Sequence record: OL362275.1 | Direction: 5' to 3' (one strand) | DNA from: Escherichia phage HC12 | DNA length: 39,342 bases | Shown here: in pieces, positions 2,939-17,006 of the stretch | Layout: each line of letters starts with the position of its first letter | Numbering within the stretch: position 1 is the stretch's first letter | Notes under the pieces: model-generated | Database searches by the model: none | Told to the model about the DNA's origin: nothing | What the model saw: only the letters and a program-made list of their open reading frames with translations | Program-made: the position numbers and the translations under genes

Positions 2939-5620
2939 ATGAGCGTCATCTCTATTGACAAGCACGACTTCTCTGATGTGTCGAACGCCATTGAGCCGTT
3001 TAACCTACTGGCTGACCACTACGGGCAAGACCTTGCAGTCAAACAGCTTCAGCTTGAGCACGAGGCATACACTGAAGGCGAGCGACGTTTCATCAAGAAC
3101 CTTGAGAGACAGACTGAGCGAGGGGAACTGGCAGACAATCAGGTCGCCAAGCCTTTGATGCAGACTCTGGTCCCTAAGATTGCGCAAGCCGTCATGGAGT
3201 GGCACGAAGGCCTAGACGGGAAGCTGTCAACCTCGCGTCCTAGTGTAGCGTTCACCATGTTGAGCACTGAAGAGAAGGCCGTAAAGGACCGCTCTATGCG
3301 CATCTCCTGTGAGTCCGCTGCGGTTATCATACTGAAGGTCATACTCTCCAAGCTGGTCAAGCCTGAAGGGATACCGATTACACCGATGGCCTCCGCGATA
3401 GGTCGCACACTTGAGGACGAAATCCGCTTCGGTCGCATCCGTGACAAGGAGAAAGAGCACTTCAAGAAGGCGATAGCTGATAACCTGAATAAGCGGACCG
3501 GGGCGTCATACAAGAAAGCCTACATGCAAGCGGTCGAGGCGTCCATGCTGGAGCAAGGCCAACTGGAAGATGCGTGGGGGACTTGGAGTCCTACAGAGGC
3601 TGTCCACGTTGGCATCAAGATGCTCGAGATTGTCATCCAGTCAACACAACTGGTCGAGCTTAAGCGGTACGGTGCTGGCAATGCAGCGGCTGATGTAGAG
3701 ATGGTCCACCTGTCAGACTTCTGGGTCAAGAAGATGGCACAACGAGGATTCAGCCTTGCGGGTATAGCTCCAGTCTACCAGCCTTGCGTCGTTCCACCTA
3801 AGCCGTGGACTGGTGTCGTAGGCGGTGGGTACTGGGCCAAAGGACGCAGACCATTACCACTGATTCGCTTAGGGTCTAAGTCTGCGGTAGCACGCTACGA
3901 AGACGTGTATATGCCTGAAGTCTATGACGCTGTGAACATCATTCAGAATACACCTTGGAAAGTGAACAAGAAGGTTCTGGAAGTGGTGAACATGGTCGAG
4001 AAGCTGAACAACACGCCTATTGATGACATCCCTCAGATGGAACCGCTGAAGCCTGAGGACTATGCGGGTGAGACTGAAGAAGAACTCAAGGCATGGAAGA
4101 AGGCTGCTGCTGGTATCTATCGCCGCGAGAAGGCCAGACAGTCACGAAGATTATCACTGAGCTTTATCGTTAACCAAGCAAACAAGTTCTCTCAGTTCAA
4201 GGCCATCTGGTTCCCGTACAACATGGATTGGCGAGGTCGTGTCTACGCTGTCCCGATGTTCAACCCTCAGGGTAACGACATGCAGAAGGGCCTCCTGACT
4301 CTGGCAGTCGGCAAGCCTATTGGTGCTGACGGTTTCAAATGGCTGAAGGTCCACGGTGCAAACTGTGCGGGTGTCGATAAAGTCACCTTCGATGAGCGCA
4401 TCAAGTGGGTGGAAGACAACCACGAAAACATCATGGCTGCTGCTAAGGCACCGATGGATAGTATTGAGTGGTGGGGCAAGTTAGACTCTCCGTTCTGTTT
4501 CCTTGCGTTCTGCTTCGAGTATGCTGGCGTAATGCACCACGGCCTGTCTTACTCTTGTTCGCTACCGATAGCGTTCGATGGGTCCTGCTCTGGGATTCAG
4601 CACTTCAGCGCGATGCTTCGTGACCACATCGGTGGACATGCAGTAAACCTGACGCCATCCGGTAAGGTCCAAGACATCTACCGCATCGTGTCTGACAGCA
4701 TTGAGGAGGAGCTTAAAGTCCTGCTGATTAACGGCACTAACAACGAGATGGTCACTCACGAGGATAAGAAAACTGGTGAGATTACCGAACGTATCAAGCT
4801 GGGGACACGAGAGCTGGCCCGTCAGTGGCTGACATACGGTATGTCACGCAAGGTCACTAAGCGTTCAGTCATGACTCTGGCATACGGGTCGAAAGAGTAC
4901 GGCTTCGCAGACCAAGTTTACGAGGACATCGTGATGCCAGCGATTGACTCAGGGTCTGGCGCTATGTTCACTGAACCAAGCCAAGCGTCTCGCTTCATGG
5001 CTAAGATGATTTGGGAAGCTGTGAGTGTGACCGTAGTTGCTGCGGTTGACGCGATGAAATGGCTTCAGGGTGCTGCCAAGCTGCTTGCTGCTGAAGTGAA
5101 GGACAAGAAGACTGGCGAAATCCTGAAGCCATGCCTTCCGGTACACTGGGTAACACCTGATGGTTTCCCTGTCTGGCAGGAATACCGCAAGAAGGATACC
5201 ACTCGTCTGAACCTGATGTTCTTAGGGTCATTCAACATTCAGCCTACCGTCAACAGAGGTACGAAGAAAGAGCTGGACAAGCACAAGCAGGAGTCAGGCA
5301 TTAGCCCTAACTTCGTCCACTCACAAGATGGTAGCCACCTGCGGAAGACTGTAGTCCACACTCACCGCAAGTATGGCGTGATGTCATTCGCAGTGATTCA
5401 CGATAGCTTCGGGACCATACCTGCTGACGCTGAGTATCTGTTCCGTGGTGTCCGTGAGACGATGGTCGAGACATACCGCGATAACGATGTGCTGCTTGAC
5501 TTCTACGAGCAGTTTGAATACCAGCTTCATGAAAGTCAGCGCGACAAGTTGCCTGAGCTTCCGAAGAAAGGTAAACTGAATATCGAAGACATCTTGTCTT
5601 CAGACTTTGCATTCGCTTAA
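2939..5620 (+). CDS. 1: DNA-directed RNA polymerase, single-subunit T7-type
   Basis: 893 aa, colinear with T7 RNAP. Conserved blocks WFPYNMDWRGRVYAV, FDGSCSGIQHFSAMLRD, HDSFGT and C-terminal DFAFA. Specificity-loop region reads RLNLMFLGSFNIQPT. Confidence 0.97.
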   Translation: MSVISIDKHDFSDVSNAIEPFNLLADHYGQDLAVKQLQLEHEAYTEGERRFIKNLERQTERGELADNQVAKPLMQTLVPKIAQAVMEWHEGLDGKLSTSRPSVAFTMLSTEEKAVKDRSMRISCESAAVIILKVILSKLVKPEGIPITPMASAIGRTLEDEIRFGRIRDKEKEHFKKAIADNLNKRTGASYKKAYMQAVEASMLEQGQLEDAWGTWSPTEAVHVGIKMLEIVIQSTQLVELKRYGAGNAAADVEMVHLSDFWVKKMAQRGFSLAGIAPVYQPCVVPPKPWTGVVGGGYWAKGRRPLPLIRLGSKSAVARYEDVYMPEVYDAVNIIQNTPWKVNKKVLEVVNMVEKLNNTPIDDIPQMEPLKPEDYAGETEEELKAWKKAAAGIYRREKARQSRRLSLSFIVNQANKFSQFKAIWFPYNMDWRGRVYAVPMFNPQGNDMQKGLLTLAVGKPIGADGFKWLKVHGANCAGVDKVTFDERIKWVEDNHENIMAAAKAPMDSIEWWGKLDSPFCFLAFCFEYAGVMHHGLSYSCSLPIAFDGSCSGIQHFSAMLRDHIGGHAVNLTPSGKVQDIYRIVSDSIEEELKVLLINGTNNEMVTHEDKKTGEITERIKLGTRELARQWLTYGMSRKVTKRSVMTLAYGSKEYGFADQVYEDIVMPAIDSGSGAMFTEPSQASRFMAKMIWEAVSVTVVAAVDAMKWLQGAAKLLAAEVKDKKTGEILKPCLPVHWVTPDGFPVWQEYRKKDTTRLNLMFLGSFNIQPTVNRGTKKELDKHKQESGISPNFVHSQDGSHLRKTVVHTHRKYGVMSFAVIHDSFGTIPADAEYLFRGVRETMVETYRDNDVLLDFYEQFEYQLHESQRDKLPELPKKGKLNIEDILSSDFAFA

Positions 5621-8895: not shown

Positions 8896-9588
8896 ATGGC
8901 TAAAGAGCAACTGAAGACTTTCACCACTCCGGTAGCTGGTATCGTTGAGCCTTACGCATGGCTGAACAAAGCAGACACCAAGTTTAATGAACGTGGTGAG
9001 CATAAGGTTAACCTGACGTTCGACCTGAGCGACCCGAAGGTCCGTAAGATGATTGATGTCTTACAGAAGATTCACGACGATGCGTATGCGAAAGCACTCG
9101 CAGACCACGAGAAGAACCCACCTCAGGTTCAGCGTGGCAAGAAGCCTATTGAACCACGTGAAGGCGACATGCCGTGGATTGAGAATGGTGACGGTACTGT
9201 TACCCTTAAGTTTAAATGCTTTGCGTCTTACCTGAAAGACGGCAAGTCCGAGCCTATCTTATTACGGTTCTACGACACCGATGCTAAACTCATCCGTGAC
9301 GTCCCGAATATTAGCGCTGGCTCCAAACTGAAGGTCAAGTTTAAAGTCCTGCCGTTCAAGTGGAACGCTGCGACCGGTGCAAGCGTTAAGCTCCAGCTTG
9401 AGTCCTGCCTTCTTGTAGAACTGAAGGAGTGGAAAGGTGCTGGTGGTGATGGTGGCTGGGGTGATGATGAAGACCTTGGTACTGGCTACAAAGCGCCAAC
9501 CGATGGTGACTTCGGGTCTGATGCCTTCGGTGACGATGGTTCCGAAGGTGGTGACGACTCCAGCTCTGGTGGCGATTACGACTTCTAA
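8896..9588 (+). CDS. 2.5: Single-stranded DNA-binding protein
   Basis: 230 aa aligning with T7 gp2.5 (AEPYA..., GKKP..P.EGDMP, KLKVK, ASVKLQLES) with acidic C-terminal tail ending in F. Confidence 0.95.
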   Translation: MAKEQLKTFTTPVAGIVEPYAWLNKADTKFNERGEHKVNLTFDLSDPKVRKMIDVLQKIHDDAYAKALADHEKNPPQVQRGKKPIEPREGDMPWIENGDGTVTLKFKCFASYLKDGKSEPILLRFYDTDAKLIRDVPNISAGSKLKVKFKVLPFKWNAATGASVKLQLESCLLVELKEWKGAGGDGGWGDDEDLGTGYKAPTDGDFGSDAFGDDGSEGGDDSSSGGDYDF

Positions 9589-10040
9589 TGGCCCAATGGT
9601 CTGCAAAACGGGGGCACTCTGTGGGTGCCTACCGCTCTGGACTTGAAGCCAAGAACCAGCAGTGGCTGGAACAGAACGGCGTCAAAGCGGAGTACGAAAG
9701 CCATTATATCAACTATGTGATTCCGGCTTCCGACCACAAGTACACACCAGATTTTATCCTTCCTAACGGTATCATCGTGGAGACCAAAGGTATCTTCGAT
9801 AGTGATGACCGTAAGAAGCACCTTCTGGTACGAGAACAGCACCCAGAGTTAGACATCCGTTTCGTGTTCTCAAGTTCACGCTCCAAGTTATACAAAGGGT
9901 CTCCAACCACGTATGGCGCATGGTGCGAAAAGAACGGCTATAAGTATGCCGATAAATTCATCCCGGTTGAGTGGCTTAGAGAGGCGACTGTACGTCTGCC
10001 TTCAGGTATACTCATCCCCAAGAAGAAAGGAGTTAAGTGA
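9588..10040 (+). CDS. 3: Endonuclease I (Holliday junction resolvase)
   Basis: 150 aa, near-colinear with T7 gp3: YTPDFILPNGIIVETKG (PD...ExK), HLLVREQHPELDIRFVFSSSRSKLYKGSPTTYG. Confidence 0.95.
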   Translation: MAQWSAKRGHSVGAYRSGLEAKNQQWLEQNGVKAEYESHYINYVIPASDHKYTPDFILPNGIIVETKGIFDSDDRKKHLLVREQHPELDIRFVFSSSRSKLYKGSPTTYGAWCEKNGYKYADKFIPVEWLREATVRLPSGILIPKKKGVK

Positions 10041-11042: not shown

Positions 11043-11121
11043 GTCTCCATAGCTCAAACGGTAGAGCGGCGGGTCGTGATGGCCTATTGCGATTAGGGTT
11101 CGAATCCCCGTGGAGACGCCA
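11043..11121 (+). tRNA. tRNA-like element (canonical acceptor, D and T arms, encoded CCA; anticodon arm non-canonical)
   Basis: GTCTCCA...TGGAGAC perfect 7-bp acceptor stem. D arm GCTC-AAACGGTA-GAGC with G18G19. T arm with GGTTCGAATCC. Discriminator G then CCA. The 26 nt between the D and T arms do not form a clean 5-bp anticodon stem; best fold gives loop GTCGTGA (anticodon CGU, Thr) with an imperfect stem. Confidence 0.45.
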
Positions 11122-13045: not shown

Positions 13046-13090
13046 CTAGACTCAAGGTCATTCACATAGAGTGGCCTTTATGATTAGACT
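13046..13090 (+). promoter_or_regulatory. RNase III-type processing hairpin (R4.7-like)
   Basis: CTAGACTCAAGGTCATTCACATAGAGTGGCCTTTATGATTAGAC, second copy of the conserved element, upstream of the DNA polymerase gene. Confidence 0.55.
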
Positions 13091-13106: not shown

Positions 13107-15278
13107 ATGTTTGACCTTAAGAGTATCTGGGGTTCTGACATCGAGACCAACGGTCTCCTTGATACAGTCTCCCAGTTTCACTGTGGGGTCCTGATTAACG
13201 CCGAGTCGAATGAGACCCTTAAGTATGGGGTAGCTCCGATGGTCGGTATCGTCGGTGGCTTCAAAGAGTATGTGCAGAAGGTGGAAGAGATTGCCGCATC
13301 ACCTGATGGTATGCTGGTATTCCACAACGGTATCAACTATGACGTCCCGGCTATTGACAAGCTGAAGCGTCTGTACTTCGGGAAACGCTTTAACTTCCCG
13401 AAACACAAGATGATTGATACCTTGGTGCTGGGTCGCTTGATGTATCCCAACATTAAGTTCTCAGACATGGGCGCGGTGAAAGCTGGTCGTCTGCCTCCTA
13501 AGATGATGGGACGCCAGTCTCTTGAGGCTTGGGGTTATCGTCTCGGTGAGATGAAGGGTGAGTACAAACACGATTACGTTGCCAAGTGCAAGGCAGAAGG
13601 TATCGAATATAAGGCTGGGGACGAATGGTTGTTCCCGTCTCAGGAGATGCTGGACTATAACGTTCAGGACGTTGTGGTCACACTGGCGTTGTTCAAGAAG
13701 TTCCTGACTGACAAGTATTACTTCCAGTCTGAACAGTTCGCTTTCGACCAGATTTATGCGTTGCGTCTGGAACATGATGCTGCGTGGACCTGTGCGAAGA
13801 TGGAACGTAACGGCTATCCGATGAACACCGAGATGGTCGAAGGTTTATATCGTGAACTCACCGTCAAACGTGCAGAGCTGTTGGACAAGCTGCGTTCGAC
13901 TTTCGGCAGCTGGTACGCACCAAAGGGAGGCAAGGAGTTCTTCAAGCACCCACGGACAGGCAAGGACCTTCCGAAGTATCCGCGAGTCGTGTATCCTAAG
14001 GTCGGGTCAGTATTCAAGAAGCCGAAGAACAAAGCTCAACGCTTAGGTCTGGAGCCTTGCGAGTTCGACTCACGAGACACGATGGAAGGAGCACCGTTCA
14101 CGCCAATCACTTACGTTGAGTTTAATCCGGGAAGCGGAGACCACTTAGCGAAAGTCTTGATGGAGCGTGGTTGGGAGCCTGTGGACTTCACTGACACTGG
14201 GAAACCTGTAGTCGATGACGAGACGTTAGAACACGTTAAGCTACCAGACGCAGAGGCTCAGGCTTGCGTAGAGCTGGTCCGTGAGTATCTGGTAGTCCAG
14301 AAGCGCATCGGTCAGGCGGCTGAAGGTAAGAACGCATGGTTGAAACTTGTAGGTCCAGACGGACGTATGCACGGCTCAATAAACCCATGCGGGGCAGTAA
14401 CCGGACGTGCGACCCATAGTTCACCAAACATGGCTCAGGTACCTGCTAACGGTGCTCCGTATGGTGAGACTTGCCGTGGTGCTTTCGGTGCAGCGTGGAA
14501 CAAGAAGGACGGCAAGCCAGACCCTTGGATTCAAGTTGGTGTGGATGCCTCAGGTCTTGAGCTTCGTTGTCTTGGGAACAGAGCGGCTCCGTTTGATGGT
14601 GGTGCCTATGCGAAGACTGTGGTCGAAGGTGACATCCACTGGGCCAACGCAGTAAACGCTGGGTTAGCACCTAACGTCCAACGCGATAAGTCTAACCACG
14701 ACCATGAGGCTTTCCGTAACAACGCTAAGACGTTCATCTACGCGTTCCTGTATGGTGCAGGGGCCGCTAAGATTGGACTGATAGTAGGCGGTGGTAAGAA
14801 GGAAGGTTCAGCGCTCATGAAGAAATTCATTGAGGGTACACCAGCTATCAAGGACCTCAGGGAAGCTGTGCAGAACACGCTCATCTCTGAGTCCAAATGG
14901 GTAGACGGTGAGAACATCGTGAAGTGGAAACGCCGCTGGCTGAAAGGTCTGGACGGTCGACGCATCCACATCCGGTCGCCACACTCAGCACTGAACGCCT
15001 TACTTCAAGGTGATGGTGCGGTAGTCTGTAAGCACTGGATTGTTGAGACTGAACGTATGCTTGAAGCCGAAGGATATGTCCACGGCTGGGATGGAGACTT
15101 TGCGTACATGGCATGGGTGCACGATGAGCTACAAATTGCCTGTAAAAACAAGGACTTAGCAGAACGCGTAGTAGAAATTGCTCAACTTGCTATGCGTAAG
15201 GTTGGTGAGTTCTATAACTTTAAATGTGTGTTAGACACGGAGGGTAAAATTGGACCAACGTGGAAAGAATGCCATTGA
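13107..15278 (+). CDS. 5: DNA polymerase (family A, T7-type)
   Basis: Colinear with T7 gp5: exo motif DIETNGL, FHNGINYDVPA, pol motifs GRATHSSPNMAQVP and VHDELQ. Start set to ATG 13107 (GGAGGA RBS); the track start at 13071 is GTG inside the hairpin. Confidence 0.97.
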   Translation: MFDLKSIWGSDIETNGLLDTVSQFHCGVLINAESNETLKYGVAPMVGIVGGFKEYVQKVEEIAASPDGMLVFHNGINYDVPAIDKLKRLYFGKRFNFPKHKMIDTLVLGRLMYPNIKFSDMGAVKAGRLPPKMMGRQSLEAWGYRLGEMKGEYKHDYVAKCKAEGIEYKAGDEWLFPSQEMLDYNVQDVVVTLALFKKFLTDKYYFQSEQFAFDQIYALRLEHDAAWTCAKMERNGYPMNTEMVEGLYRELTVKRAELLDKLRSTFGSWYAPKGGKEFFKHPRTGKDLPKYPRVVYPKVGSVFKKPKNKAQRLGLEPCEFDSRDTMEGAPFTPITYVEFNPGSGDHLAKVLMERGWEPVDFTDTGKPVVDDETLEHVKLPDAEAQACVELVREYLVVQKRIGQAAEGKNAWLKLVGPDGRMHGSINPCGAVTGRATHSSPNMAQVPANGAPYGETCRGAFGAAWNKKDGKPDPWIQVGVDASGLELRCLGNRAAPFDGGAYAKTVVEGDIHWANAVNAGLAPNVQRDKSNHDHEAFRNNAKTFIYAFLYGAGAAKIGLIVGGGKKEGSALMKKFIEGTPAIKDLREAVQNTLISESKWVDGENIVKWKRRWLKGLDGRRIHIRSPHSALNALLQGDGAVVCKHWIVETERMLEAEGYVHGWDGDFAYMAWVHDELQIACKNKDLAERVVEIAQLAMRKVGEFYNFKCVLDTEGKIGPTWKECH

Positions 15279-15666
15279 CGGAAAGTCCCTGCATTATACA
15301 GGTGCTGCGAGCGAGTTGTATGCGAGCTACCGACTGACGGCTATGGGACACCAAGTCTTCCTACCTGCGTTCACCCAGTCCAAAGCGGACTTAGTGGTGG
15401 ATATCAACGGGACCCTTATGAGGGTTCAGGTGAAAACTGGGACCAAGCTGAAGAACTGTAATAGCATTCAGGTCCGGCTTGGTGGGTGCGGTAAGCCAAC
15501 TTACAGTCCTGGAGACATCGACCTACTAGCGGTTGTCTATCAGGATTTGCTCTGGCTTATACCGTTCACTGAAGAGGTTAGAGTCAAGACCTCTATGTGT
15601 ATAAACTTAACGTCTGACAAGAAGTACGGACAATTTAAACAGGAGAAGACTAATGGCTATTACTAA
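15250..15666 (+). CDS. Hypothetical protein, possible PD-(D/E)xK-like nuclease fold
   Basis: 138-aa ORF overlapping the last 29 nt of gene 5. TTG start with GGAGGG RBS (alternative internal ATG at 15343). Segment ADLVVDINGTLMRVQVKTG resembles the D...(E/Q)xK core of Hjc-type resolvases; weak by-eye inference. Confidence 0.5.
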   Translation: MDQRGKNAIDGKSLHYTGAASELYASYRLTAMGHQVFLPAFTQSKADLVVDINGTLMRVQVKTGTKLKNCNSIQVRLGGCGKPTYSPGDIDLLAVVYQDLLWLIPFTEEVRVKTSMCINLTSDKKYGQFKQEKTNGYY

Positions 15667-15937
15667 ACGTATTCGTGTGAGTTTTGATCTGAAGATGGTT
15701 GTTAACTCAAAGGAAGAAGATACCATGTGTCGCCAACTGGCTGAGATGACTAAAGCCTACGCTGAGGGTGAGGAGCTGGATGGTCTTCAGTTGGCTATGG
15801 TAAAAACCGCAATCGAGTCAGGCCCTGAGTCTGCCCTTGAAATTGCCCTCAAGAAGACCATCAAGGAGGAGCTGGTAGACGACTTTGGTTATGGCCAGTT
15901 CGGAGTATCTAACCTGCGATTCGAGGTCAAGCAATGA
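15653..15937 (+). CDS. 5.5: gp5.5-like protein
   Basis: RBS AGGAG. N-terminus MAITKRIRVSFDL resembles T7 gp5.5; position conserved. Confidence 0.65.
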   Translation: MAITKRIRVSFDLKMVVNSKEEDTMCRQLAEMTKAYAEGEELDGLQLAMVKTAIESGPESALEIALKKTIKEELVDDFGYGQFGVSNLRFEVKQ

Positions 15938-16143
15938 GTGAATACTTACGGGTCCTAGCGGCCCTTAAGTCCTGCCCGAAGACCTTCCAGTCCAACTACG
16001 TGCGCAACAATGCGGCACTGGTGGCTGAGGCTGCGAGTCGTGGACATCTGAGCTGTCTGTCTATGGACGGGCGTAACAACGGTGCGTGGGAGATTACCGC
16101 TGCTGGCACCAAGTTCCTGAACCAACATGGAGGATGCCTGTGA
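15934..16143 (+). CDS. 5.7: gp5.7-like protein
   Basis: 69 aa, near-colinear with T7 gp5.7: LKSCPKTFQSNYVRNNAALVAEAASRGHLSCL...GAWEITAAGTKFL. Confidence 0.85.
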   Translation: MSEYLRVLAALKSCPKTFQSNYVRNNAALVAEAASRGHLSCLSMDGRNNGAWEITAAGTKFLNQHGGCL

Positions 16144-17006
16144 GCGAAAAGAAAATAGCTCTGGTTCTTGATGGTGACTATCTGGTCTTCTCTTCTATGG
16201 CTGCTTCCGAGGACGAGACTGACTGGGGCGATGACATCTGGACCCTTATCTGCGACCATGAGAAGGCTCGTCGCATCCTTGAGAACACCATCGCTGAAAT
16301 CGTTAAGAAGCGCAAGGCGTGGAAAGACGCTAAGATTGTGATGTGCTTCACTGACGATTACAACTGGCGTAAGGACGTCCTGCCTACCTATAAGGCCAAC
16401 CGTAAAGGTTCTCGCAAGCCTGTAGGTTACAAGAAGTTCGTAGCCGAAGTGATGGCTGACCCACGGTTCAACAGCTTCCTGCGTCCTACGCTTGAAGGCG
16501 ATGATTGTATGGGTATCATCGGGACCAGACCTCAGATTGTAGGCTGTGACCATGCTGTTCTGGTGTCCTGTGATAAGGACTTCAAGACCATCCCGAACTG
16601 TGAGTTCTTCTGGTTAACCACTGGTGAAATCCTGAGTCATACGACTGCTGAGGCAGACTACTGGCACATGGAGCAAACCATCAAGGGTGACACCACAGAT
16701 GGCTACGGTGGCATTCCGGGGATGGGTGAGGATACCACACGCGCGTTCCTTGACGAGCCGTACTACTTCGTACAGGAGAGCCGTGAGCTTAAGACTGGTA
16801 AGAACAAAGGCCAGATTAAGACTGAGTGGAAGAAGTATCCAAAGCGTGACGACATGACGCTGTGGGACTGCATGGTGACTCTGGCTGCTAAAGCTGGGAT
16901 GACCGAGGAGGAACTTCTTGTCCAAGCTCAGGTCGCTCGTATTTGTCGAGCCTCCGACTACGACCCTAAGTCCAAGGAGGTCATCCTATGGACACCATCC
17001 ATGTGA
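16134..17006 (+). CDS. 6: 5'-3' exonuclease
   Basis: Colinear with T7 gp6: LVLDGDYLVF, KANRKGSRKPVGY, SCDKDFKTIPNCEFFWLTTG, IKGDTTDGYGGIPG, WDCMVTLAAKAGMTEEEL. Start is ATG 16134 or GTG 16140 (GGAGG RBS favours GTG, overlapping the gp5.7 stop). Confidence 0.93.
   Translation: MPVSEKKIALVLDGDYLVFSSMAASEDETDWGDDIWTLICDHEKARRILENTIAEIVKKRKAWKDAKIVMCFTDDYNWRKDVLPTYKANRKGSRKPVGYKKFVAEVMADPRFNSFLRPTLEGDDCMGIIGTRPQIVGCDHAVLVSCDKDFKTIPNCEFFWLTTGEILSHTTAEADYWHMEQTIKGDTTDGYGGIPGMGEDTTRAFLDEPYYFVQESRELKTGKNKGQIKTEWKKYPKRDDMTLWDCMVTLAAKAGMTEEELLVQAQVARICRASDYDPKSKEVILWTPSM

Follow-up and report, generated by a model that had tools for sequence, protein, structure and literature searches.

The window, a stretch of 39,342 nucleotides from Escherichia phage HC12 (OL362275.1), represents a K1F-like phage of the T7 group and is 100% identical to Escherichia phage 6925 across the 1.4 kb searched. 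The 138-aa ORF singled out in a sequence-only reading of this DNA was confirmed at 15250–15666 on the plus strand, and the peptide quoted from it, ADLVVDINGTLMRVQVKTG, corresponds to residues 46–64 (nt 15385–15441). As an ORF it is far beyond chance expectation. The upstream DNA polymerase gene (pol) ends at 15278, so that the small ORF, read in the +1 frame, overlaps it by 29 nt. The gene order pol, 5.3, 5.5, 5.7, exonuclease is common to the window and T7, and in L092, a distant T7-like contig, the syntenic gene downstream matches PF11247 (Phage_T7_55). The features of the locus are as follows.

13107–15278, plus strand: DNA polymerase (gene 5), upstream neighbor; an ORF, annotated in ON637250 at 13276–15447 (equal to window 13107–15278)
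15239–15244, plus strand: Shine-Dalgarno sequence GGAGGG for the TTG start, occupying the pol codons T-E-G
15250–15278, plus strand: 29-nt pol/gp5.3 overlap; it spans the 9 terminal sense codons of pol plus its stop and, in the +1 frame, gp5.3 codons 1–10, which encode the leader MDQRGKNAID
15250–15666, plus strand: gene 5.3 ortholog, predicted 138-aa PD-(D/E)xK endonuclease of the PF11645/I-Ssp6803I family, from the ORF, Pfam, the 2OST profile match, Foldseek and identity to T7 gp5.3
15313–15315, plus strand: Glu22, predicted acidic catalytic residue of helix 1 (within predicted helix 19–31), invariant in 80 homologs
15388–15390, plus strand: Asp47, the D of D...QxK, invariant in 80 homologs and matching the Asp of the 2OST segment DLVFD in the alignment
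15427–15435, plus strand: Gln60-Val61-Lys62, QxK replacing (D/E)xK; Q60 is invariant, V61 and K62 are at least 90% conserved, and QVK is identical in I-Ssp6803I
15640–15656, plus strand: 3' junction CAGGAGAAGACTAATGG, where gp5.3 ends, gp5.5 has its RBS and ATG, and the cassette-less pol terminus AAGGAGTGTCACTAATGG recurs as a diverged copy; from alignment of occupied and empty sites
15653–15937, plus strand: gp5.5-like gene, downstream neighbor by annotation, overlapping the gp5.3 gene by 14 nt

Around the gp5.3 gene, neither a sigma-70-like promoter nor an intrinsic terminator was found. A repeat search gave no significant flanking repeats, and the diverged duplicate of the pol terminus is visible only against empty sites; the SFPH2 segment CAGGAGTAACACTAATGG matches the empty-site pol terminus at 15 of 18 positions. 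Loss of one base at the 3' junction has removed the TAA stop of gp5.3 in the window, adding the tail EKTNGYY (about 6 residues). Endonuclease I is also encoded in the window, at 9588–10040 (Pfam Phage_endo_I), in agreement with the proposal that the small ORF would be a second nuclease of this phage.

The TTG start at 15250 lies 5 nt downstream of GGAGGG. It is the first possible start, because an in-frame TAG at 15232–15234 closes the frame upstream, and it is kept in all four intact relatives examined; the TTG with a strong RBS proposed for this ORF is upheld. The G at 15239 and the G at 15242, both synonymous changes in pol that create GGAGGG, are restricted to phages whose endonuclease cassette starts with TTG. 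Phages lacking a cassette carry C and A at these positions, with one exception at 15242. The terminal codons of pol likewise differ at synonymous sites, reading AAA GAA TGC CAT TGA in the window and AAG GAG TGT CAC TAA in cassette-less phages. In L092 this overlap module is also present, but its start codon is ATG.

Translation from the sole internal ATG (codon 32), or as a pol fusion by +1 frameshifting, was considered as an alternative. The ST16, ST17 and ST29 records annotate the internal ATG, the YZ1 record leaves the ORF unannotated, and the +1 frame and overlap with pol are what a fusion would use. Nevertheless, codon 32 is Lys in YZ1 and SFPH2, and the family-invariant residues G18 and E22 lie upstream of it and would be missing from the shorter product. 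Selection is equally strong over codons 11–31 (dN/dS 0.02–0.12), and the substitutions that create the Shine-Dalgarno sequence co-occur with the cassette. Moreover, in the homologs of T7, Kvp1 and L092 the corresponding N-terminus is preceded by an RBS and begins with an ATG of its own. Both forms of this alternative were rejected as extremely improbable. Among the records examined, annotation needs correction where the ORF is labeled 'hypothetical protein' (phage 6925, SFPH2), is uncalled (YZ1) or starts at the internal ATG, which truncates the active site (ST16, ST17, ST29).

The protein matches Pfam PF11645 (PDDEXK_5) with 40.5 bits (E = 3.4e-10; gathering cut-off 26.1 bits), with residues 15–124 aligned on profile positions 4–122 of 138, and it matches phrog_5018 with E = 5.7e-29. 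NCBIfam gave no match for either the window protein or T7 gp5.3. A word-indexed protein search returned only 11 relatives, and an exhaustive search was needed to reveal the family (277 clusters at E ≤ 0.001). The only sequence match in the PDB was I-Ssp6803I (2OST; phmmer E = 0.009), and hmmsearch with the family profile matched 2OST over chain residues 3–136 with E = 6.9e-14. The AF2 model, of moderate confidence and built from a shallow alignment of 8 sequences (pLDDT 72.8, pTM 0.71, core blocks 69–89), shows a helix followed by strands, as is typical of the PD-(D/E)xK core. A Foldseek search, which had been suggested as a check on the predicted structure, returned the four 2OST chains at ranks 1–4 (E 4.9e-8 to 1.5e-6, TM 0.60–0.62; top match E = 4.9e-8, TM 0.60), with Hjc and the SPARDA nuclease domain ranked behind them. 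Membership of PF11645 and the PD-(D/E)xK fold that had been proposed by eye are therefore secure.

In 80 diverse homologs, G18, E22, D47 and Q60 are invariant. The alignment to 2OST pairs D47, Q60 and K62 with the D, Q and K of DLVFDVEGILLKVQVK; residue-level statements on I-Ssp6803I refer to this sequence alignment. Compared across the family, Q60 in place of an acidic residue is the norm and not a mark of decay, and gp5.3 has the complete family-typical active site E22, D47, Q60-x-K62. The sequence-only reading had taken the Gln as the sign of a degenerate nuclease or a DNA-binding derivative. A catalytically dead protein that only binds DNA would fit a Gln at the canonical acidic position of (D/E)xK. 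This reading is nevertheless improbable, as Q60 is invariant together with E22 and D47, with K62 nearly so, and the characterized homing endonuclease I-Ssp6803I (PMC3384342) has the same D-x12-QVK. Retention of the full catalytic constellation in 80 divergent sequences would be unexpected of a dead enzyme. The Gln in D...QxK thus gives no sign of lost function in PF11645, and gp5.3 is probably an active nuclease.

The possibility that the phage has in gp5.3 a second enzyme for Holliday junctions, an Hjc-type resolvase that works on branched DNA together with endonuclease I, was judged still less probable than a dead enzyme. The resemblance to Hjc noted earlier holds at the level of fold: Hjc gave the next-best matches after 2OST (Foldseek E 5e-4 to 3e-3, TM 0.41–0.51), I-Ssp6803I and Hjc are known structural neighbors (PMC3384342), and the archaeal resolvase shares the minimal PD-(D/E)xK core and a similar size with gp5.3. 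It does not extend to family membership. The Pfam Hjc-resolvase family gave no match to gp5.3 at E ≤ 1, the match to I-Ssp6803I is far better (E 5e-8, TM 0.60), and the catalytic set of Hjc is E-D-E-K rather than E-D-Q-K, with an invariant Gln at the third position in the gp5.3 family. Hjc is a core recombination enzyme, whereas the gp5.3 gene is patchy and dispensable, and the phage already has endonuclease I.

T7 gp5.3 (NP_041983, 118 aa) is 47% identical to the window protein over 106 aa (E = 5e-32). Homology to a non-nuclease protein of the T7 group had been named beforehand as a finding that would count against a nuclease; the homology found supports the nuclease reading, because T7 gp5.3 is itself a member of PF11645. 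The two proteins also share the slot between DNA polymerase and gp5.5 and the E...D...QxK residues, and by these comparisons the window ORF is the K1F-group positional ortholog of T7 gene 5.3. T7 gp5.3 begins at its own ATG 15 nt past the pol stop and has no N-terminal leader, whereas the window gene starts with TTG inside pol and encodes 14 extra N-terminal residues in addition to the C-terminal tail that follows its lost stop. In T7, gp5.3 is dispensable (PMC9825161, PMC12153263).

I-Ssp6803I, a characterized PD-(D/E)xK homing endonuclease (PMC3384342), resembles the window protein in its PF11645 membership, size, full-length profile match, D-x12-QVK motif and fold, although the two share only about 22% identity. 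It is encoded by a group I intron in the tRNA-fMet gene of Synechocystis, while the window gene is free-standing and belongs to a virulent phage. The tetramer and the long pseudo-palindromic target belong to the I-Ssp6803I side of this comparison. In addition, the position of E22, invariant in the phage family, is occupied by Gln in I-Ssp6803I, so the two active sites are not identical.

The distribution of the gene was examined in 20 Kayfunavirus-like IMG/VR genomes. The pol/gp5.5 junction was empty in 10, held gp5.3 in 3 and an HNH_3 endonuclease in 3, and carried an unrelated small ORF in the other 4. Among more distant IMG/VR relatives, gp5.3 followed pol in only 3 of 60. Several copies are damaged: Penshu1 has lost about 270 bp from within the gene, the ST17 and ST29 copies are frameshifted, and those of P0007 and P0010 have internal deletions. 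Patchy presence at one precise site among close relatives, which is a mark of homing genes, is therefore observed, as are the degenerate copies that go with it. As for intron-encoded homing genes, no intron family was detected in the window at Rfam gathering thresholds, and the ORF has a coding gene on either side and overlaps both.

The HNH genes of these phages provide a second comparison. In K1F and CLB_P1 they are intron-encoded and lie inside pol; the CLB_P1 gene is annotated as an HNH homing-endonuclease gene within a joined polymerase CDS, and its K1F equivalent is a putative group I intron (PMC4925675). In L028, L030 and L031 the HNH genes are free-standing and sit at the same pol/gp5.5 junction as gp5.3, with presumably the same selfish lifestyle. 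Those of L028 and L030 have the same TTG and an LDQ(R/H)GKSAID leader. The HNH genes differ from gp5.3 in fold (HNH_3, E = 1.6e-18).

Intact gp5.3 copies showed dN/dS values of 0.03–0.09 in frame, while calculation in the wrong frame reversed the pattern (dS below dN). Divergence of gp5.3 and of its flanks was discordant in several pairs. For YZ1 and SFPH2, dS was 0.64–0.68 in pol and 0.09 in gp5.3; for ST16 and L027, the pol segments gave 0.25 and 0.68 and gp5.7 gave 0.06, against 1.61 for gp5.3. Such discordance does not call for an endonuclease, because T7-group genomes are mosaic in general and their ordinary recombination could give the same result. Within pol, only the last ~46 nt contain nucleotides linked to the presence of the cassette.

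Taken together, gp5.3 is best read as the K1F-group ortholog of gene 5.3, a catalytically competent, dispensable, free-standing endonuclease that is probably of the homing or selfish type, a reading that we hold with moderate confidence. Phages provide established cases of free-standing endonucleases that home without an intron (PMC3984707). The gene is transcribed with the class II DNA-metabolism genes and translated from the TTG by means of the RBS within the last pol codons. From the comparisons above, we infer nuclease activity, homing and the location of the target as follows. By analogy with I-Ssp6803I, the protein would cut double-stranded DNA in a metal-dependent and sequence-tolerant manner. 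Short 3' overhangs would be expected from enzymes like I-Ssp6803I. In a mixed infection it would cut cassette-less relatives near the pol/gp5.5 junction, and the broken genome, repaired on a cassette-bearing template, would thereby acquire a ~420-bp unit spanning roughly 15230 to 15652.

In the main competing reading, the PD-(D/E)xK nuclease is active but serves the phage instead of its own spread; it was inherited vertically from a Studiervirinae ancestor and lost repeatedly where it was not needed. Its possible roles include cutting the DNA of the host or of competitor phages, acting on replication or recombination intermediates and interacting with host defense. The position after pol is the same in T7, Kvp1, KP32-type phages, L092 and K1F-type phages, with 47–57% identity, and old vertical inheritance with repeated loss fits this cross-genus pattern as well as homing does. 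The long and strong purifying selection (dS up to ~1.6 with dN/dS <0.1) exceeds what a short cycle of invasion and decay predicts and could reflect a function useful to the phage. Moreover, the title of Xu et al. (Mol Cell 2026, cited in PMC13223576) implies DNA cleavage by Gp5.3 during infection, with the Ppl defense sensing the ends. Immunity of the target site is not the only explanation of the recoded pol terminus, which may reflect that the overlapping frame has to encode the conserved gp5.3 N-terminus (NAID). Nevertheless, most close relatives lack gp5.3 or have broken copies, and the same slot alternatively holds an HNH homing-type endonuclease, which indicates a niche for selfish genes. 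Benefit to the phage is thus a serious but clearly less probable explanation than a homing or selfish gene.

A search of the empty junction for a palindromic target of gp5.3 found TAATGGCTATTA, palindromic at 10 of 12 positions. It is not proposed as the target, because the same sequence persists in cassette-bearing genomes. The last 750 nt of pol were also scanned, with the K1F intron site (polymerase motif C, near 15104) as a candidate target; association with the cassette was weak at that site, 0.30 compared with 0.50 in the last 50 nt.

As a more speculative extension of the homing interpretation, which we offer tentatively, the K1F-like pol/gp5.5 junction might be a contested landing site for selfish nucleases. 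Two unrelated families, PD-(D/E)xK and HNH, would share there an RBS-TTG-MDQRGK-AID module lying within the final pol codons and displace each other, and gp5.3 would spread by cleaving junctions that lack the cassette, homing without an intron. The resulting ends, with 3'-OH overhangs, may be what a defense such as Ppl detects. If this is true, no PD-(D/E)xK homing endonuclease of the free-standing type would have been shown in a virulent phage before gp5.3.

As a protein assignment there is little new here: the family is curated in Pfam, the T7 ortholog has been catalogued since the sequencing of the T7 genome, and some databases already label homologs 'PD(D/E)XK endonuclease'. The finding is real but ordinary, because the odd-looking Gln is normal for the family. 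The junction itself is a small, naturally occurring model for studying how free-standing endonuclease genes compete and, should gp5.3 be selfish as proposed, how such a gene makes the final codons of an essential gene serve its own translation start.

The polymerase gene of this phage, a T7-group member of the genus Kayfunavirus (K1F-like), is overlapped at its end by a small ORF. The ORF claimed there by the sequence-only reading is present with exactly the proposed limits:

15250-15666, + strand: gp5.3 ORF, 138 aa

The peptide quoted for it, ADLVVDINGTLMRVQVKTG, corresponds to residues 46-64, and the polymerase ORF stops at 15278, leaving 29 nt common to both genes, with gp5.3 in the +1 frame. 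Over the surrounding 1.4 kb (14800-16200) the window shares 100% identity with Escherichia phage 6925 (ON637250), where the same ORF with the same limits is labelled 'hypothetical protein' (UTI75159.1), and 99.9% with phage HC13. Since no sigma-70-type promoter or intrinsic terminator was found near the gene, it was assigned to the polymerase transcription unit.

The polymerase start differs between a mechanical ORF call (GTG at 13071, 735 aa) and the matching GenBank record (13107, 723 aa, 36 nt later). Further upstream, the 156 nt separating the amidase/lysozyme gene from the primase/helicase gene contain a tRNA-like element (11043-11121, + strand). It scored 36.7 bits (E = 2.8e-4) against Rfam tRNA and was called tRNA-Thr with anticodon CGU by ARAGORN. 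T7-group phages do not usually carry tRNA genes; the element may be a genuine tRNA, a structure resembling one, or a fold that arose by chance.

The gp5.3 protein matched Pfam PF11645 'PDDEXK_5' (40.5 bits, cut-off 26.1, E = 3.4e-10) and phrog_5018, a family of unknown function (E = 5.7e-29). By sequence it matched a single PDB entry, 2OST, that of the PF11645 homing endonuclease I-Ssp6803I. When 1.8 billion representative proteins were searched exhaustively, 277 clusters were found at E ≤ 0.001, mostly of 120-150 aa and single-domain, and a profile built from 80 homologs matched 2OST over chain residues 3-136 (E = 6.9e-14). The AlphaFold2 model, computed from a shallow input alignment, had a mean pLDDT of 72.8 and a pTM of 0.71, with 10-residue block means of 69-89 over residues 11-120 and floppy ends. 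In the model a helix precedes a series of strands, as is typical of PD-(D/E)xK cores. The top PDB matches to the model were four 2OST chains (E 4.9e-8 to 1.5e-6, TM about 0.60), followed by archaeal Hjc resolvases (E 5e-4 to 3e-3, TM 0.41-0.51) and the SPARDA nuclease domain. The predicted structure thus recovers the restriction-endonuclease-like PD-(D/E)xK fold, with 2OST as best match. The Hjc-like core proposed earlier holds at the level of fold but not of family, which is that of the homing endonuclease I-Ssp6803I. Despite the structural matches to Hjc, a second junction resolvase is unlikely: gp5.3 had no match to the Pfam Hjc-resolvase family at E ≤ 1, endonuclease I (9588-10040) is present in the phage as well, and the gene is dispensable and patchily distributed.

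Residues G18, E22, D47 and Q60 are invariant across the 80-sequence alignment, and V61, K62, G33, P39 and P105 are conserved at 90% or more; this conservation gives a family signature of E...D-x12-Q-x-K. The glutamine had been read as pointing to a degenerate nuclease or a DNA-binding derivative. That reading is not supported, because Q60 is invariant in the 80 homologs and the same QVK occurs in I-Ssp6803I, a homing endonuclease already characterised and known to bind a divalent metal ion (PMC3384342). Like gp5.3, I-Ssp6803I has D-x12-QVK at exactly aligned positions; unlike the phage proteins, it has Gln where those have the invariant E22. The glutamine of gp5.3 is a family hallmark and no mark of decay, and a dead DNA-binding derivative is improbable.

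T7 gp5.3 (NC_001604, 16483-16839), also a PF11645 member, is 47% identical to the window protein over 106 aa (E = 5e-32) and lies in the same place, between genes 5 and 5.5. This position is likewise held by Kvp1 '5.3', KP32 gene 22 and a homolog on the unrelated T7-like contig L092. By these comparisons T7 gp5.3 has its Kayfunavirus ortholog in the window gene. T7 gene 5.3 is dispensable (PMC9825161, PMC12153263). One title in the reference list of PMC13223576 includes 'Gp5.3-Cleaved', words that are missing where this DOI is cited elsewhere; such a title is no more than a lead towards a phage Gp5.3 with demonstrated DNA cleavage.

The proposed TTG start with a strong RBS was borne out. TTG at 15250 follows GGAGGG at 15239-15244 with a 5 nt spacer, and an in-frame TAG (15232-15234) precludes any start further upstream. 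Annotations vary: SFPH2 is started at the TTG, ST16, ST17 and ST29 at an internal ATG (codon 32), and the gene is uncalled in YZ1. Translation from that ATG, or as a frameshift fusion with the polymerase, is nevertheless unlikely, and the evidence favours TTG. The codon is kept in 4/4 intact copies examined (window, YZ1, SFPH2, ST16), while codon 32 is Lys instead of Met in YZ1 and SFPH2. Codons 11-31 have dN/dS of 0.02-0.12, with 5-13 synonymous versus 2-3 non-synonymous differences in divergent pairs, and the invariant G18 and E22 sit 5' of codon 32. Two synonymous polymerase changes (15239, 15242) convert CGAAGG to GGAGGG and, with one exception at 15242, are seen only with TTG-started cassettes: 15239 is G in 12/12 cassette-bearing phages and C in 17/17 others, and for 15242 (G versus A) the figures are 12/12 versus 16/17. 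The homologs in T7, Kvp1 and L092 begin at their own ATG, placed at the equivalent N-terminus.

Occupancy of the junction was surveyed in 80 IMG/VR genomes retrieved by polymerase C-terminus, 20 Kayfunavirus-like and 60 more distant.

Occupancy of the polymerase/gp5.5 junction in Kayfunavirus-like loci
10/20: empty, polymerase TAA overlapping the gp5.5 ATG (AAGGAGTGTCACTAATGG)
3/20: gp5.3 (PD-(D/E)xK)
3/20: HNH_3 endonuclease (Pfam E = 1.6e-18)
4/20: unrelated 52-aa Cys-rich ORF (MAKTYSEQEVKDLMRSAWWCGHEESRYSPNLSGSC...), at 2975-3140 in loci L018, L019 and L025 and 2570-2735 in L022

Only 3/60 of the more distant genomes carried gp5.3 after the polymerase. The Cys-rich ORF had no Pfam match, and Dev2 has a fourth alternative, an unrelated 75-aa gene (gp5.1). 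In CLB_P1 (L003, 1906-2403) and K1F the polymerase gene is interrupted 174 nt from its end, at about window 15104, by an insertion with an HNH homing endonuclease, described in K1F as a putative group I intron (PMC4925675). Rfam detected no intron in the window, where the polymerase gene is uninterrupted. Counting this insertion and the junction cassettes, phages of this genus harbour mobile nuclease genes of at least three kinds in a region made up of the final 200 nt of the polymerase gene and the junction.

At the left side of the junction the polymerase gene ends in AAA GAA TGC CAT TGA in cassette-bearing phages versus AAG GAG TGT CAC TAA in cassette-less ones. This recoding might protect against self-cleavage. 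A simpler reason would be coding need in the overlapping gp5.3 frame, in which each synonymous polymerase change is non-synonymous (KNAID versus RSVTN). 'NAID' or 'VID' is a native N-terminal part of distant homologs (P0011, MNAIDAHYTG; P0008, MSVIDGTTQHYTG), and contig L092 has the same GAATGCCATTGA overlap but an ATG start. Because gp5.3-frame coding suffices to explain the recoded terminus, no target site is claimed. On the right side, the last part of the cassette duplicates, with some divergence, the end of the polymerase gene in cassette-less phages (SFPH2 CAGGAGTAACACTAATGG versus empty site AAGGAGTGTCACTAATGG, 15/18 identical), and this copy supplies the gp5.5 RBS. The window (15640-15666) and YZ1 have one base fewer in CAGGAG(T)AA than SFPH2 and ST16; the TAA stop is therefore lost, and the ORF continues 14 nt into gp5.5, giving 138 aa instead of 132. 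The resulting C-terminal tail, EKTNGYY, is predicted to be disordered.

Differences among the intact copies are mostly synonymous (dS 0.08-1.3, dN/dS 0.03-0.09), and a wrong-frame comparison reversed the pattern, with dS below dN. Broken copies also occur. In Penshu1 (L002, 1977-2083) the annotated 'intergenic' spacer between the polymerase gene and gp5.5 is what is left of gp5.3 after the internal loss of about 270 bp: ~40 nt from its start and ~90 nt from its end. The gene is frameshifted by a single base in ST17 and in ST29, where shortened ORFs are annotated, and the metagenomic proteins P0007 and P0010 have lost internal segments. In two phage pairs the divergence of gp5.3 is discordant with its flanks.

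Synonymous divergence (dS) of gp5.3 and flanking genes
YZ1 / SFPH2: polymerase 0.64-0.68; gp5.3 0.09; gp5.7 0.11
ST16 / locus L027: polymerase 0.25 and 0.68 (two segments); gp5.3 1.61; gp5.7 0.06

Nucleotides statistically associated with the cassette are limited to the last ~46 nt of the polymerase gene (15230-15277), so that the exchangeable unit is about 420 bp, from the RBS in the polymerase gene to the gp5.5 start.

The gp5.3 protein is most likely a small endonuclease that depends on metal ions, cuts double-stranded DNA and probably forms oligomers, with a predicted active site of E22/D47/Q60/K62. It would be made in modest amounts, its TTG start being weak, when infection is in the DNA-metabolism phase. 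Its patchy distribution, broken copies, short linkage block, discordant divergence and the HNH genes in the same slot fit a free-standing homing endonuclease, which would spread via intronless homing, an established pathway for phage endonucleases (PMC3984707). A role of benefit to the phage is the less likely reading, though the constant position across genera and the long and strong purifying selection speak for it. The original observation is confirmed and its interpretation supported in part.

The I-Ssp6803I family was already known, and the window gene, as a further member, is of low significance in itself. The most noteworthy by-product is a TTG leader common to two unrelated nuclease families at one junction. 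The HNH_3 cassettes occupy 2949-3300 in loci L028 and L030 and about 2985-3300 in L031, equivalent to window 15250-15652. In L028 and L030 the HNH gene, like the PD-(D/E)xK gene, is in the +1 frame, and it shares with that gene a TTG and leader, LDQ(R/H)GKSAID, within the end of the polymerase gene; in L030 and L031 the 3' end of the cassette is an exact copy of AAGGAGTGTCACTAATGG. This arrangement suggests replacement of one nuclease body by the other behind a retained expression leader.
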